DNA of 24,551 nucleotides from a virus (taxonomy: Duplodnaviria; Heunggongvirae; Uroviricota; Caudoviricetes), in the IMG/VR virus record IMGVR_UViG_2545824713_000005, one strand, 5' to 3'. Under the pieces are notes generated by a model that did no database searches, was not told the origin of the DNA, and saw only the letters and a list, made by a program, of their open reading frames with translations. A program made the position numbers and the translations under genes. Numbering within the stretch: position 1 is the first letter of the stretch; the number at the start of each line of letters is the position of its first letter. Below, piece by piece: positions 2,592 through 24,551 of the stretch.

Positions 2592-3674
2592 TTAGAACTG
2601 GTAAACCATACCTACAGCAACGATATCATCGGTAGCAACGCCAGATGCTTTCGTGAAATCGCTCTTATCAATCAGGTTGATTTTGTAATCAACAAAAGTG
2701 GACATATTTTTGTTGAAGTAATAGGTTGCACCTACATCAATATATTCAACCAGGTCCTGATCACCCCACGCACCCAAGTCTTTTCCTTTAGATTGCAGGT
2801 AAGCAACGGACGGACGCAGACCGAAGTCGAACTGATATTGTGCAACTACTTCGAAGTTTTGTGCTTTGTTGGCAATATGGTTATTACCAAAAACAGTCAT
2901 GTTCTGGGTTTCAGAATAGGTGGTAGCCAGATAGATGTTGTTCGCATCATATTTCAGACCAGCTGCCCATACTTCAGCATTTTGACCAGATGCATTCAGG
3001 CTGTTGTTACCGTAGATAACCTGATTATTAGTGCGGTCAGATTTAGCATAGGTTGCACCTACACCGAATCCTTCATACTCATAAGTAGTGGAGAAACCGA
3101 AACCATCACCATTAGCTTCAGTTACGTCAGTGCGGTCATTTTTACCCTGATACTGAGCAGCAAAGTTCAGACCATCAACCAGACCAAAGAAGTCATTGTT
3201 ACGATAAGTTGCAACACCTGTGGTGCGACCAGTCATGAATACATCTGTTTGGGTCCAGGTATCGCCACCGAATTCTGGCAGAACGTCGGTCCATGCACCA
3301 ATATCGTATGCTACACCGTAGTTACGGCCATAATCGATGGAGCCGTAGTCACCGAATTTCAGGCCAGCGAAGGCAAGACGGGTTTTATCTTTGGAGGAAC
3401 CTTGAGATTCAGCGCGGTTGCCTTTGAATTCATATTCCCACTGACCGAAACCAGTCAGTTGATCGTTGATTTGGGTTTCACCTTTGAAGCCAAGACGGGC
3501 ATAAGTAGTATCACCATCATCTGCATCATTAGAGGAGAAGTAGTGCTTAGCATTAACTTTCCCGTACAGATCCAGCTTGTTACTGTCTTTATTATAAATT
3601 TCAGCTGCCTGAGCAGACATCGCCATCAGTACTGATGCAGCTACAGCAGAAATTGCCACTGTTAATTTTTTCAT
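2592..3674 (-). CDS. nmpC: Outer-membrane general porin, NmpC/Lc (OmpC/OmpF family), apparently intact
   Basis: 360-aa protein from [23 protein letters not shown] (signal peptide) AEIYNK... to C-terminal ...VGMVYQF (terminal Phe, typical beta-barrel OMP). The track ORF 2592-3734 is an upstream extension. No IS interruption seen. Confidence 0.9.
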
Positions 3675-3734
3675 CGTGAGCCCTTTTTTTGAACTATTAT
3701 TAAAAAATGATGTCACTGCGCGATAAATATTCAT

Positions 3735-10937: not shown

Positions 10938-12209
10938 ATGCCTAACAATCTCGACAGTAACGTCAGTCAAATCGTTCTGAAAAAATTCCTTCCGGGTTTT
11001 ATGTCAGATTTAGTTCTGGCGAAAACCGTAGACCGTCAGTTGCTGGCAGGTGAAATCAACTCCAGCACTGGCGATAGCGTTAGCTTTAAACGTCCGCATC
11101 AATTCTCATCCCTCCGTACTCCCACTGGTGATATTTCAGGGCAAAATAAAAACAACCTGATCTCAGGTAAAGCTACGGGGCGTGTAGGTAACTACATCAC
11201 TGTTGCTGTTGAATATCAGCAACTGGAGGAAGCGATCAAGCTTAACCAGCTGGAAGAAATTCTCGCGCCGGTTCGCCAGCGAATCGTTACCGACCTTGAA
11301 ACAGAGCTTGCTCACTTCATGATGAATAACGGTGCGTTGTCACTTGGTAGCCCCAATACTCCAATCACCAAATGGTCTGATGTTGCGCAGACGGCATCTT
11401 TCCTGAAAGACCTCGGCGTTAATGAAGGTGAAAACTATGCTGTAATGGATCCATGGTCTGCACAGCGACTTGCTGATGCGCAGACTGGTTTGCACGCTTC
11501 AGATCAATTGGTTCGTACTGCATGGGAGAATGCACAGATCCCAACCAATTTTGGCGGCATTCGCGCACTGATGTCTAATGGGCTTGCCTCTCGTACGCAG
11601 GGGGCATTTGGCGGAACACTGACAGTCAAAACACAGCCAACTGTTACCTATAACGCAGTTAAAGACTCATACCAGTTCACTGTAACATTGACCGGAGCGA
11701 CAGCCAGCGTTACAGGTTTTCTGAAAGCTGGTGATCAGGTTAAATTCACCAATACCTACTGGCTGCAACAGCAGACCAAACAGGCGTTGTATAACGGAGC
11801 CACACCAATTAGCTTCACTGCAACGGTTACTGCTGATGCTAATTCAGACAGCAGTGGCGATGTGACGGTTACGCTTTCTGGTGTTCCGATTTATGACACT
11901 ACAAACCCGCAGTACAACTCTGTAAGTCGTCAGGTAGCGGCAGGCGATGCCGTATCTGTAGTAGGCACTGCTAGCCAGACAATGAAGCCAAACCTGTTCT
12001 ATAACAAGTTCTTCTGTGGACTTGGCTCTATCCCACTGCCGAAACTGCACAGTATTGATTCTGCTGTTGCAACATATGAAGGTTTCTCCATCCGCGTACA
12101 TAAATACGCAGATGGCGATGCCAACGTGCAAAAAATGCGCTTTGACTTACTGCCTGCATATGTGTGCTTTAACCCTCACATGGGCGGTCAGTTCTTCGGT
12201 AATCCGTAA
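10938..12209 (+). CDS. Major capsid (coat) protein (P22 gp5 / Sf6 gp5-like, 423 aa)
   Basis: Gene order and size; followed by a strong intrinsic terminator, as expected for a highly expressed coat gene. Confidence 0.85.
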   Translation: MPNNLDSNVSQIVLKKFLPGFMSDLVLAKTVDRQLLAGEINSSTGDSVSFKRPHQFSSLRTPTGDISGQNKNNLISGKATGRVGNYITVAVEYQQLEEAIKLNQLEEILAPVRQRIVTDLETELAHFMMNNGALSLGSPNTPITKWSDVAQTASFLKDLGVNEGENYAVMDPWSAQRLADAQTGLHASDQLVRTAWENAQIPTNFGGIRALMSNGLASRTQGAFGGTLTVKTQPTVTYNAVKDSYQFTVTLTGATASVTGFLKAGDQVKFTNTYWLQQQTKQALYNGATPISFTATVTADANSDSSGDVTVTLSGVPIYDTTNPQYNSVSRQVAAGDAVSVVGTASQTMKPNLFYNKFFCGLGSIPLPKLHSIDSAVATYEGFSIRVHKYADGDANVQKMRFDLLPAYVCFNPHMGGQFFGNP

Positions 12210-12213
12210 TAAC

Positions 12214-12240
12214 AAGGGGCTTCCGCCCCTTTTATGTTTT
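12214..12240 (+). terminator. Intrinsic terminator after coat gene
   Basis: AAGGGGC-TTCC-GCCCCTT hairpin followed by TTTTATGTTTT, 5 bp after the coat stop. Confidence 0.6.
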
Positions 12241-19756: not shown

Positions 19757-20077
19757 TTAGCGGTTGATGGTTGCTTTTTTCGGGTCATACCATCTCGGCC
19801 ATTCTTTCAGGAATGGGAATGAGTCGGGAGCGTGGTTCTTTTTGTACGATTTAAGCAGCCTTAACCGCTCAATCGCACACTCATAAACCTCTTGTTGCCC
19901 TGTAGTCATCTCGGTCCATGAAAGGTGATCCATTGATAAGACAACGTTTTCAGCTTCTTTTATGAGGGCGTTTTTATTTCTCACCGCAGCAGCATGGCTG
20001 ACAGAGCAATCCTGCCATATTCTTAAAAGCCAAATAGCTAAGCAGATGAAAAAAATGGTAGAGAGCGATATGTACAT
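19757..20077 (-). CDS. Hypothetical single-pass membrane protein (106 aa), last gene of the mnt-side leftward cluster
   Basis: MYISLSTIFFICLAIWLLRIWQD... N-terminal TM helix; AAGGAG RBS; AT-rich codon usage unlike the flanking structural genes; convergent with gp16, 8 bp apart. Confidence 0.55.
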   Translation of the reverse strand: MYISLSTIFFICLAIWLLRIWQDCSVSHAAAVRNKNALIKEAENVVLSMDHLSWTEMTTGQQEVYECAIERLRLLKSYKKNHAPDSFPFLKEWPRWYDPKKATINR

Positions 20078-20157
20078 GCCGATCTCCTTAGATTTATCAA
20101 TGCTGCATGATTTTCAACAGACATCAATCATGCAGCTATAGGTAATAAATCAAGAAA

Positions 20158-20658
20158 CTATTGAGAACGTTTGTCTTTTTGAGACTCTAATATAGCCAAT
20201 ACCTTATAAAGAGATTGGTTTGTTGAGTCTAATTTTTGATCAGTGTTATCAATCCTTGACTGTAATACTGATTGGTTGTTTTGGATAGTAGCCATTATCT
20301 CTGCCTTACTGGTTTGGATGTTTCCTGTTAGCTCTTGTCGTGATGATTCAACTTTATCATCTATAGTGCCTCGAATCGTCCATGTGGCGGCAACGATAGA
20401 ACCAATGATAGCAACTGCAACCCCGTATAGCTCTAAACGTTTCACGGTATCACGACCTTCTTCTTTGTGTTGCTCTTCTTGTAGGCTAAATATTTGTGGT
20501 TCCTTTGACGGATTTCTGTCAGTTGGTCTGTAATACTCTGAATATTTAGCGTTTTCTATTGAACTCCATAACGATTTGTCAAAGTCAAGGTTTTCATGTT
20601 GGCTTTGAGCATCTCCATAAATACTAGGTGATTTATTGTGAACATGTTGGTCAAACAT
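20158..20658 (-). CDS. Hypothetical membrane protein (about 166-170 aa) with central TM helix and C-terminal coiled-coil-like region; possible SieA-type exclusion protein
   Basis: Track ORF 20158-20670 begins at a GTG; I favour the ATG at 20658 with GGAG RBS. Central TM segment LYGVAVAIIGSIVAATWTI; start region overlaps the stop of the upstream Cys4 gene. Confidence 0.5.
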   Translation of the reverse strand: MFDQHVHNKSPSIYGDAQSQHENLDFDKSLWSSIENAKYSEYYRPTDRNPSKEPQIFSLQEEQHKEEGRDTVKRLELYGVAVAIIGSIVAATWTIRGTIDDKVESSRQELTGNIQTSKAEIMATIQNNQSVLQSRIDNTDQKLDSTNQSLYKVLAILESQKDKRSQ

Positions 20659-20998
20659 TATCTCCATCACCCTTTACGAATTTTCCAGAAGAGATATTTT
20701 CACTAACTTTGTTTAAACTAAAAAAGTGGAAGAAACCGCAAGTGGTGCATTGCATGGCTACCATGTTAAGACTATCGTTGCTATAAGTATCTTGATTAAC
20801 AGGATTATTAGGCAAGCTTTTACCTGGTATGGATGGGCCTATAACTTCAACACCATCATCTTTTTTAAGATGCTCAGGTGCTAAAAGAGTCCAGTTTGTA
20901 TTGCTGCATATTGGGCATACATAAGTTTTTTTGAATGAAGTCAAGTAATTACTAAAAGACTCAAAAGTAACTTTTAAGTATTGCTCCTTACTGCTCAT
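20651..20998 (-). CDS. Hypothetical Cys4 (zinc-ribbon-like) protein (115 aa), translationally coupled to mnt
   Basis: CPIC...(52 aa)...CTTCG motif; ATG overlaps the mnt stop (TAATG on minus strand); AT-rich. Confidence 0.5.
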   Translation of the reverse strand: MSSKEQYLKVTFESFSNYLTSFKKTYVCPICSNTNWTLLAPEHLKKDDGVEVIGPSIPGKSLPNNPVNQDTYSNDSLNMVAMQCTTCGFFHFFSLNKVSENISSGKFVKGDGDNV

Positions 20999-21237
20999 TA
21001 TTGGCCTCGAATCTTCTTAAGTACGCTAATTGCAATATCCATTGCTTCCTTCTCTGTTTTTGTGAGATCTTGAGATGTCGATGGTATGACCTTTTCTCTG
21101 TTAATCTTAATCCATAGCTGTATTGCAGCTATGATTTCAGCATTGATAGAGCGCCTGTTTGTTGCCGCAATGTGAGTAAGCTGCTGCTTGATTTCACTTG
21201 GCATTCTTACGTTAAATTGTGGATCGTTTCTAGCCAC
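20998..21237 (-). CDS. mnt: Mnt-like ribbon-helix-helix repressor (immI maintenance repressor)
   Basis: MARNDPQFNVRMPSEIKQQL... resembles the recalled P22 Mnt N-terminus (MARDDPHFNFRMP...); GTG start with AGGAGA RBS; divergent from arc. Confidence 0.85.
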   Translation of the reverse strand: MARNDPQFNVRMPSEIKQQLTHIAATNRRSINAEIIAAIQLWIKINREKVIPSTSQDLTKTEKEAMDIAISVLKKIRGQ

Positions 21238-21330
21238 GTCGCTCTCCTGTTATTTGTTGACATGCTAGAACGGTAGTAGTACGCTTTCAATAGTAGTACG
21301 GTGCTATCATTTAATGGAATGGAGTGGAAT
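21238..21330. promoter_or_regulatory. Divergent overlapping Pmnt / Pant promoter-operator region
   Basis: Plus strand TTGACA at 21257-21262 (Pant -35); on the minus strand -35 TTGAAA (21285-21290) and -10 TAGCAT (21262-21267) with 17-bp spacing (Pmnt); two direct copies of TAGTAGTACG at 21274-21283 and 21291-21300. Confidence 0.5.
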
Positions 21331-21492
21331 ATGCAAGGCGCAAGAAAAATGCCGCAGTTCAATTTGCGGTGGCCTAAAGAAGTATTGGATTTGGTACGCA
21401 AGGTGGCGGAAGAGAATGGTCGGTCTGTTAACTCTGAGATTTATCAGAGAGTAATGGACAGCTTTAAGAAGGAAGGGCGCATTGGCGCGTAA
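21331..21492 (+). CDS. arc: Arc ribbon-helix-helix repressor (53 aa)
   Basis: [53 protein letters not shown], near-identical to the recalled P22 Arc; start is the internal ATG with GGAG RBS inside track ORF 21301-21492. Confidence 0.9.
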
Positions 21493-21494
21493 AG

Positions 21495-21565
21495 TTGAAG
21501 CCCCAACTGCGGGAACAGTCAGGGCTTCGGTTGTCGGTAAATTCGTGGAGAAAAACCAACATGAA
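21495..21565 (-). ncRNA. Candidate sar-like antisense RNA covering the arc-ant intercistronic region and ant RBS
   Basis: By analogy with P22 immI: minus-strand TATACT -10 overlapping the ant start, and hairpin GAAGCCC...GGGCTTC at about 21503-21532. Ends not determined. Confidence 0.3.
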
Positions 21566-22496
21566 TAGTATAGCAATTTTAGAAGCAGTGAACACCTCTT
21601 ACGTGCCTTTCAATGGTCAGCAGATTTTAACCGCTGTGGCTGCCGGAGTGACTTATGTAGCGATGCGTCAAATTGTGGAAAACATTGGTATCGACTGGAC
21701 TGGTCAATCTGTTAAGTTGCGTAAAATGAAGGACAAATTCAACTGTAGAGATATCTCTATGGTTGCTGCTGATGGCAAGTTACGTAAGCTTTTATGCATC
21801 CCGCTGAAGAAGTTAAATGGATGGCTGTTCAGCATCAACCCTGAGAAAGTTCGTGCTGACATCCGTGATAAACTGATTCAGTACCAGGAAGAATGCTTTA
21901 GCGTGCTGCATGACTACTGGACTAAAGGTCATGTAGTTAACCCACGCAAAGCTAAAAAGGCGTTGCCGGGTAAAATCACCACTGAACAGCAGGAAGCCAT
22001 TAAACAACTCGTCATGAGTCGCGGTCAGTCTCTGCCAAAAGAAAAACAGGCTAAGGCGATGATCACCATGTGGTCGTCACTGAAATCCCATTTTGGATGT
22101 TCGTACAAAGAAATCAGTGAGGAGCAGTTTACCGAAGCACTATCACTTGCAGCTCGAGTTCCACTTGAAGGTGAGTTCATTGGCAAACAAGAGAAGAAAA
22201 CCAACGAGCTTTCTGCAAAAGAAGCAAACAGCCTTGTATGGTTATGGGATTATGCTAACCGCTCACAGGCATTATTCCGCGAACTGTATCCGGCATTAAA
22301 ACAAATTCAATCGAACTATTCCGGCAGATGCTACGACTACGGTCATGAATTCTCGTATGTTATCGGAATGGCGAGAGACGTTTTAATCAATCACACACGC
22401 GATGTTGATATCAATGAGCCAGACGGACCAACGAATCTTTCCGCATGGATGAGACTTAAGAATAAAGAATTACCTCCTTCAGTACATAACTACTGA
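21561..22496 (+). CDS. ant: Antirepressor Ant (311 aa)
   Basis: Start at [21 protein letters not shown]... with GGAG RBS (track ORF begins earlier at 21495); immediately downstream of arc as in P22 immI. Confidence 0.8.
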
Positions 22497-22596: not shown

Positions 22597-24411
22597 ATGA
22601 CAGACATTACAGCCAATGTGATCGTATCGATGCCTTCGCAACTTTTCACTATGGCGCGTTCTTTTAAAGCCGTAGCCAATGGCGAAATTTATATCGGGAA
22701 AATTGACACTGACCCGGTAAATCCTGAAAACCGGATTCAGGTTTATGTAGAGAATGAAGACGGTTCTCATGTTCCTGTTTCGCAACCAATAATCATTAAC
22801 GCTGCTGGTTACCCTGTATATAACGGACAGATTGCCAAGTTCGTAACTGTGCAAGGCCATTCTATGGCTGTTTATGATGCATATGGTGCACAGCAGTTCT
22901 ATTTTCCGAATGTTCTTAAATATGATCCTGATCAGCTTAAAGTATCTCTATCAGGGGAAGACGGTCTTAAATACATCGGGACATGCCCTGATATAGCAAT
23001 GTTAAGGACAATTGAGCCTGAGCGAGATCAGCAAAAGATTTTCGTCGACTTCCACACTACAGGCATGAAGCCGACAGTATCAGGTGATACTGGTGGTGGT
23101 CTGTTTGTGGCCGATTTCACAGATTCTACTTCTGCAGATGATAACGGCATGGTCATTGTCACTGCGGGTGGTAAACGCTGGAAACGTGATCTTCAAGGTA
23201 AGGGGTACGTAACACCACGTATGTTTGGAGCGTGGATGGATGCTCCATATATTGACTGGAGTACTATTCAGGCCACAGGGTATCCTAGAGCGCCAAGCAT
23301 GGGTGGCGTTGATTTAACAGGTGTAACAAATGATGGATTAGCACTTAATAAAGCTTATCTAACTAAGCTTCCTGTTTTCATAGACCAGCCTATATATATT
23401 GGTAACACTCAAATTGACATTAGCCAGTTTAGATGGGAAGGGATTAGTCTAAATCTATATGGGATTAATCCACAAAAAAGTATTGTTTATACATCAGGAA
23501 GTGGTGGTTTTGTTATGGGAAGTTGGGGGCACAATCTTAAAGTAAAGAATATGTGTTTTCGCAACGCTGACGATGAATATTCAGGTAGCCCATTGGTCAT
23601 TTCTGGTCAAACACAAACTTTTGGCGGTGGTAGTGAATATGATATTAAAAATAACATATTTCTACATTATAAATTTGCACTTCCCTTATCATGCTTTGTC
23701 AGTAATGTTACAAACAACCAAGCATATGATTGTATCTATGGTTTCGGTTTGGCTGGCACATCTACTACATTCTCTTCCAACTGGGCAAGGCATTGTGACT
23801 ACGGATATCTGTGGGGCGCGGCTATTGATAGAACAACATATGATCCGGTGAACAGTCCTTACCCATTGATGTATGTTAAGGCCACAAATATCGCGTCGGA
23901 TGGATGTAAATTACCACATAAGTTCTATCAATTTAGATCTTTAAGTATTGATGGTCTAGGTATTGAGGGTGTCACAGGAGATCATTGCTTAGATTTTACA
24001 GATATAGTTCAGCAGGATGCTACTTCGCTAATGGAGTTGTCAAATATCTCATGCGATCTTAAGGAAGACAATGCGGTAGGTGTGACGCACTTCATATCAT
24101 TGCCAACTAATGAACAGAATGGACCAACACAAGTTAGGATATCATCTGGATATGTTCGGGCACACAAAGGGATTACCCTTCTTAAGAATACATCTGACGA
24201 GTTAAGCCAGTATCAATGCCGTGGGTTTGATATTTGTGATGGGTTCAAATTCATAAAGCAAACAAGCGGTAGTTCTATCGCTGATGACTACGTTAGAGGG
24301 AGTAAATATCATTCAAGATTCTATGGTGAACATACAGGTATTGGTTATCAGACAGGCTCTAATGGCACTAAACTTTCAGCATTACATCAGGCATCTAGAC
24401 TGGCCCCCTGA
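22597..24411 (+). CDS. Tailspike protein: P22 gp9-like N-terminal head-binding domain plus divergent receptor-binding domain; 3' end interrupted by IS2 (last 5 codons and stop are IS-derived)
   Basis: First ~115 aa ([43 protein letters not shown]...NVLKYDPDQ) resemble the recalled P22 tailspike N-terminus; remainder is AT-rich and unrelated to it. ORF ends ...[10 protein letters not shown], where SRLAP-stop is encoded by TCTAGACTGGCCCCCTGA, the IS2 terminus. Confidence 0.8.
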
Positions 24412-24551
24412 ATCTCCAGACAACCAATATCACTTAAATAAGTGATAGTCTTAATACTAGTTTTTAGACTAGTCATTGGAGAGCAGATGATTGATGTCTT
24501 AGGACCGGAGAAACGCAGACGGCGTACTACACAGGAAAAGATCGCTATTGT
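24396..24551 (+). mobile_element. IS2 left end (IRL and start of orfA), continues beyond window
   Basis: TAGACTGGCCCCCTGAATCTCCAGACAACCAATATCACTTAAATAAGTGATAG... matches my recollection of the IS2 left terminal repeat region, followed by the InsC start. Confidence 0.75.
24487..24551 (+). CDS. insC: IS2 OrfA (InsC) N-terminal fragment, truncated by window end
   Basis: ATG with GGAGAG RBS; translation [22 protein letters not shown] matches the recalled IS2 InsC N-terminus. Confidence 0.75.

Follow-up and report, generated by a model that had tools for sequence, protein, structure and literature searches.

The DNA analysed here, a stretch of 24,551 nucleotides that we refer to as the window, comprises the late region of a P22-like prophage, in which every gene appears as a full-length open reading frame (ORF). 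The endolysin, Rz spanin, small and large terminase, portal, scaffold and coat genes are all present at full length, as is the rest of the late region, which reads gp4-gp10-gp26-gp14-gp7-gp20-gp16, followed by mnt, arc, ant and the tailspike gene. Within the immI region, mnt (20998-21237) is on the minus strand, and arc (21301-21492) and ant (21495-22496) are on the plus strand. The tailspike gene lies where P22-like phages carry it, at the end of the late region past the ejection genes and the immI mnt/arc/ant genes. The tailspike reading frame runs into an insertion sequence (IS), IS2, and this lesion is the only obvious defect in the visible 24.5 kb.

The immI region is not the same in all prophages with this tailspike. 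The prophage of E. coli strain 573 (L001, 4527-4997), which has a 99% identical tailspike, has a single Arc-family gene in the interval from gp16 to the tailspike, and the difference from the window (20998-22496) is a mosaic exchange directly upstream of the tailspike. Between gp16 and mnt, the window has three minus-strand ORFs of 106, 170 and 115 aa (19757-20998), two of which match PHROGs of unknown function (phrog_24865 and phrog_4293). Two related prophages (L008 and L009) have a SieA-like superinfection-exclusion gene between early-region genes and mnt, and a moron or exclusion function is therefore possible for the three minus-strand ORFs. A 380-aa ORF (2592-3734, minus strand) upstream of the lysis genes matches phrog_410, likewise of unknown function, over its full length (E = 1.7e-224), and it may be a moron in the late-regulation region.

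The tailspike gene and the IS2 end

The native part of the P22-type tailspike gene spans positions 22597-24395 on the plus strand and consists of codons 1-599 and the first two bases of codon 600. It encodes a head-binding domain (residues 1-113; Pfam Head_binding, PF09008, E = 1.5e-65) and a beta-helix body (approximately residues 126-575), and it ends in a linker. In a PDB sequence search, the head-binding domains of Sf6 and P22 match the N-terminus (7sg7, 8tvr and 2xc1), and the first ~340 nt of the gene have 85-94% DNA identity to the tailspikes of P22-like podophages. The head-binding domain, the gene position and the beta-helix architecture are shared with the tailspikes of this group (P22 gp9, Sf6 gp14, HK620 gp9 and CUS-3). 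However, the receptor-binding part belongs here to PF27114 (Phage_tail_beta, precomputed for the 604-aa protein described below) and has no close solved structure; PDB sequence matches past the head-binding domain reach only to approximately residue 216. A further difference from these tailspikes is that the gene is interrupted and its product is without the C-terminal domain.

The ORF list gives a fusion ORF of 604 aa (22597-24411, plus strand), in which 600 tailspike residues are followed by RLAP and a TGA stop. The stop (24409-24411, plus strand; read from the sequence) lies within the left inverted repeat (IRL) of IS2. Codon 600 is TC|T, with the first base of IS2 as its third position, and the serine, encoded by TCA in the intact gene, is kept, the end of the ORF reading ...HQA S RLAP*. 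The initial annotation had placed the start of IS2 near 24396 and attributed five codons (SRLAP) to it; the start is exactly at 24396, but the foreign part comprises four residues, RLAP, and the TGA only. Residues 601-745 are missing from the ORF and, because the complete C-terminal domain is absent, we regard the gene as a disrupted member of the P22-like tailspike family, that is, a pseudogene. The 604-aa protein is on record from E. coli draft genomes as WP_001514659.1, END82304.1 and END87735.1, and a 597-aa record (END68118.1, 'E. coli P0299483.1') is the same gene with a later start call.

The remaining positions of the window (24396-24551, plus strand) are the first 156 nt of IS2 in the orientation of the tailspike gene, and the window ends inside the element. 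The 42-bp IRL at 24396-24437 (plus strand), TAGACTGGCCCCCTGAATCTCCAGACAACCAATATCACTTAA, agrees with the published IRL at 42 of 42 positions, and the next 16 nt match the published sequence too (PMC3299598). Compared with the complete 1331-bp IS2 of phage phi456 (L006), this part of the window is identical at 156 of 156 positions (E = 4e-75), a match well outside what chance would give; the phi456 copy spans TAGACTGG...GCAAATCCA and has a 5-bp repeat, CCAGT, on either side. Hence, the tailspike frame does run into IS2, as first annotated, and the reservation that the terminal sequence might not match IS2 on alignment falls away. A complete IS2 is 1331 bp long and has a 41-bp right inverted repeat at its end (...GGGGCAAATCCA).

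The orfA gene of the element (insC; HTH_Tnp_1) starts with an ATG at 24487, as read from its translation, and is cut by the window end (24487-24551, plus strand). The IRL, the internal sequence and the orfA start are thus those of IS2 of Escherichia coli (IS3 family, IS2 group) over all 156 nt, whereas, relative to that reference, the window shows only the left end of the element and the flanking repeat implied below has 4 nt in place of 5. The source contig (L002) is longer; there, orfA is called at 11891-12217 with PF01527, and AAAAAAG comes after this gene, which gives the IS2 arrangement of an orfA inside the IRL followed by an A6G -1 frameshift window, orfB lying past the ends of the contigs. 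The IS2 part of this contig is identical to the complete 1331-bp copy at 498 of 501 positions. One of its features lies past the window end, at contig position 12216 (IS2 position 417), where a G>A change immediately follows the A6G slippery site. It converts OrfA codon 109 from TGG to TAG, giving an OrfA of 108 aa instead of 121 aa; in the frame of the OrfAB transposase, it is silent (GTG>GTA). The change could alternatively come from several IS2 copies being collapsed into one consensus.

The breakpoint and the far side of the element

The breakpoint is set by comparison with an uninterrupted homolog in E. coli strain 573 (NZ_CP102853.1), for which the megablast match, at 99.9% identity over the 3' part of the tailspike, stops at window position 24395. 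The empty site of strain 573 reads ...CAGGCATC|AAATGCAG, whereas the window reads ...CAGGCATC|TAGACTGG. The strain 573 tailspike is an uninterrupted protein of 745 aa that is colinear with the window protein, with 594 of 600 residues identical and no gaps. In the complete E. coli genomes, the IS2 portion of the window was matched in 4760 of 5426, as expected for a multicopy element, with a median of 3 matching places per matched genome and a maximum of 41, whereas the tailspike portion was matched in almost none. The tailspike 3' region has a single occurrence in these genomes, that of strain 573 with its empty site, and an insertion at this tailspike site was found in no complete E. coli genome searched. 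The exact junction 35-mer had no matches in the genome contigs and metagenome contigs searched.

At least four independent public contigs share the junction of the window; two are from NCBI assemblies and two from Logan assemblies of SRR runs. The public contigs that encode the exact 604-aa protein are APZQ01000045.1 (GCA_000357465.2), APZS01000020.1 (GCA_000357125.1) and contigs of SRR488352 and SRR488354. All public contigs with the junction end 14 to 501 nt into IS2, and short-read assemblies commonly break at repeats in this way. Given that assemblers are least reliable in repeats, the junction might be a chimeric join of a tailspike contig to an IS2 repeat end. However, such an artefact is very improbable: the same junction occurs in the two NCBI assemblies and in two independent Logan assemblies of separate runs, the join coincides exactly with base 1 of the IS2 inverted repeat, and the reciprocal junction is on record as a protein.

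This protein was reached by a search with the missing 145 residues, which returned a 130-aa fragment whose cluster includes WP_149007375.1 (P0005), an E. coli protein of 159 aa from 3 contigs. P0005 begins with MITGVWKYRGKS, which the IS2 right end encodes, and continues with tailspike residues 600-745. All 159 of its 159 residues were reproduced in silico by joining the IS2 right end (GTG ATA ACA GGT GTC TGG AAA TAT AGG GGC AAA TCC A), CATC and the strain 573 sequence past the breakpoint. On the strength of this reconstruction, P0005 is the reciprocal junction, with the same IS in the same orientation at the same site.

IS2 moves by a copy-out/paste-in route via a minicircle and gives short direct repeats at the insertion, with strand transfers normally 5 bp apart (PMC3299598). 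The left flank ends in GCATC (24391-24395), which would be the expected 5-bp IS2 duplication, whereas P0005, the sole record of the right junction, fits a flanking repeat of 4 nt, CATC (24392-24395), these being the bases needed between the IS2 terminus ...CCA and AAATGCAG. A 5-bp duplication was rejected against P0005, as it gives a different read-in peptide, and 3-, 6- and 0-nt variants were rejected as well. The 4-nt repeat could reflect a 4-bp duplication, the loss of 1 nt at the junction or a different event.

A rival to a simple insertion is an IS2-associated deletion or inversion between two IS2 copies, after which the tailspike 3' end would be lost or lie elsewhere. There are several IS2 copies per E. 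coli genome that are able to recombine, the implied 4-nt repeat is atypical of a clean IS2 insertion, and the window and every public junction contig stop inside IS2, which leaves the adjacency to be deduced from a protein record rather than read as DNA. However, recombination with a distant IS2 copy would not yield P0005, in which the IS2 right end leads into tailspike residues 600-745 at the same breakpoint as the left junction, to within the duplication. Furthermore, the acyltransferase gene that follows the intact tailspike has a variant with accessions END68406.1 and END79613.1, which are from the accession series of the source-strain tailspikes; the representative of the acyltransferase cluster (P0069) is on one unrelated 3.3-kb contig. 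We therefore consider a rearrangement unlikely, and P0005 together with the acyltransferase accessions favours a simple insertion with the 3' remnant adjoining the IS. The same two lines of evidence speak indirectly for the claim of the initial annotation that the native C-terminus is displaced beyond the element.

Under a simple insertion, the right junction would read ...CCA + (G)CATC + AAATGCAGTATATC. We infer the same adjacency for this strain, in which the severed 3' segment would most likely come straight after the 1331-bp IS2 copy and before the acyltransferase and integrase genes. In the uninterrupted relative, the tailspike gene is followed by a terminator-like hairpin and then by the oppositely oriented acyltransferase gene. 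Since the tailspike gene is the last in its transcription unit, its interruption should have no polar effect on other phage genes.

The missing C-terminal domain and the fate of the tailspike

Relative to the intact alleles, 600 native residues remain and 145 are lost, corresponding to 19% of the 745-aa tailspike. The initial annotation had asked for this alignment and had allowed for a loss of only a few residues, which the size of the missing part contradicts. The 90%-identity cluster of the 604-aa protein has 47 members, and 13 of the 15 listed are 745-746 aa long; the only short forms among those listed (604 and 597 aa) are from this locus. All 600 native residues of the window protein recur unchanged in an intact allele (P0009, WP_276339543.1), which indicates that the insertion is evolutionarily recent and that the gene carries no other coding lesion.

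These lengths also bear on the possibility that IS2 inserted just past the natural stop and left the tailspike essentially complete, in which case intact homologs would end at the same residue as the native part. The intact homologs, at 99-100% identity, extend 145 residues further (745 aa versus 600 native residues), and none of the 18 full-length relatives aligned ends near residue 600, which excludes such an insertion.

A search with the receptor-binding part (residues 116-600) gave relatives from 83% down to approximately 45-47% identity. The full-length relatives are 739-849 aa long, one match is 641 aa and the shorter matches align to only part of the query; the N-termini of the relatives are the P22 head-binding domain or other adaptors (PF18668). 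Eighteen full-length relatives were aligned together with the window protein and P0008, the intact representative of the cluster. The block past residue 600 is conserved in all 18 aligned relatives, irrespective of the N-terminal adaptor, and contains approximately 25 near-invariant positions, for example P617, D623, G630-E631-E632, P649, W683, H724, Y736, D737 and W740. A word-indexed protein search with the 145-aa C-terminus gave nothing beyond short fragments, a limit of the index; it overlooked the 745-aa proteins that carry this domain at 100% identity, and the notion that the missing domain is known only as fragments was therefore rejected.

In an AlphaFold2 model of the intact tailspike (mean pLDDT 71.9), the beta-helix extends over approximately residues 126-575, with a pLDDT of ~90 over residues 240-530. 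It is followed by a low-confidence linker (576-602) and then by a separate Ig-like beta-sandwich (608-743, pLDDT ~80). The IS2 break after residue 600 falls in this linker and hence removes the C-terminal domain cleanly. Modelled alone, the C-terminal module has a pLDDT of 79 and its fold yields only generic Ig-like matches. The whole intact model matches the tailspike depolymerases 5w5p, 5w6p, 6e1r and 4urr with a Foldseek probability of 1.00, and these matches are trimeric depolymerases (Acinetobacter phage AM24, CBA120 TSP2, Sf6 and WceF).

In our reading, a P22-like prophage of E. coli (draft genomes of the 'P0299483.x' series) received an IS2 copy by transposition into its tailspike gene, between bases 2 and 3 of codon 600 and in the gene's own orientation. 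Translation now enters the IS2 left inverted repeat and stops after four codons, and the product keeps the head-binding domain and the whole beta-helix without the conserved 145-residue Ig-like beta-sandwich. The truncated chain is probably unable to form the trimeric virion spike, given the general role of C-terminal modules in driving or locking the trimers of beta-helix tailspikes, and by this analogy an induced prophage would give spike-less, non-adsorbing particles. For P22, heads that lack spikes can receive purified tailspike in vitro.

Three precedents are available for this analogy. The P22 tailspike's C-terminal domain folds early and is an auto-chaperone that aligns the three chains (PMC3357383), and the C-terminal lectin-like (LEC) domain of KP32gp38 is both necessary and sufficient for trimerization (PMC13082707). 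KP34gp57 without its C-terminal beta-sandwich is a monomer, and the authors of that study point to a trimeric state as a requirement for viral tailspikes to function (PMC10653864). As in the deletion variants of KP34gp57 and KP32gp38, the window protein is a beta-helix tailspike minus its C-terminal beta-sandwich, and trimerization was abolished in those proteins; however, the variants are engineered or proteolytic forms of unrelated Klebsiella phage proteins, whereas the truncation here is natural, made by an IS and known from sequence and a model. In view of the precedents and of how well the lost block is conserved, we consider it most likely that no virion spike is made, that tailspike function is lost and that the prophage is adsorption-defective.

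A truncated protein could still be useful, either in virion assembly or as a free monomeric O-antigen or capsule depolymerase, that is, a domesticated prophage enzyme. The head-binding domain and the whole beta-helix (~126-575) are kept, KP34gp57 trimmed at its C-terminus keeps full activity as a monomer, and the same study discusses domesticated prophages with truncated depolymerases (PMC10653864). As the trimmed KP34gp57 monomer can stay catalytically active, the 604-aa product may likewise have residual depolymerase activity (PMC10653864). Nevertheless, we think it improbable that the truncated protein is of use. The C-terminal block is kept in every full-length relative examined, across N-terminal adaptors, which implies purifying selection on the block as part of a working spike, and both KP32gp38 and P22 need the C-terminal module for trimer formation (PMC13082707, PMC3357383). 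In addition, the intact allele is identical over residues 1-600, which leaves no time for a truncated form to have adapted.

More doubtful still is a two-piece tailspike, in which the 604-aa chain and the 159-aa product, started at the GTG in the IS2 right end and made up of 13 IS2-derived residues and tailspike residues 600-745, would re-form a spike non-covalently, or else the truncated chain would serve the host as a free monomeric depolymerase. By comparison, a simple IS2 insertion into the tailspike gene of a P22-like prophage, with the C-terminal domain lost and spike function probably lost with it, is in our judgement highly probable as a joint reading.

Annotation and decay of related tailspikes

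The 604-aa protein is annotated as 'phage head-binding domain-containing protein' and carries no flag as an IS-truncated pseudogene, and the 159-aa 'hypothetical protein' would be the other half of the tailspike fused to IS2 sequence. The predicted adsorption defect of a complete-looking prophage is relevant to induction, to depolymerase use and to counts of intact prophages. With its single inactivating lesion in a structural gene of an otherwise intact-looking prophage, the locus resembles decaying (cryptic) prophages. Disruption of prophage structural genes by ISs is a familiar route of prophage decay. Biologically, the IS2-disrupted tailspike is ordinary, and its value lies in annotation and prophage viability, as one more case of a known decay process and no new mechanism.

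Tailspike decay seems to be recurrent in these P22-like prophages. A sister tailspike of the 744-aa type, approximately 70% identical, has a frameshift after ...EEASYTGGG that splits it into 644 and 97 aa in at least 24 public contigs, and the split form also loses the conserved C-terminal ~100 residues. The split loci are L008 4061-6294 (also L009 and L011), L010 4191-6294 and L012 166-1514. Several of them (L009, L010 and L012) are adjoined by integrase and yfdC genes, and the sister tailspike of L010 is additionally cut by IS1 on its 5' side.
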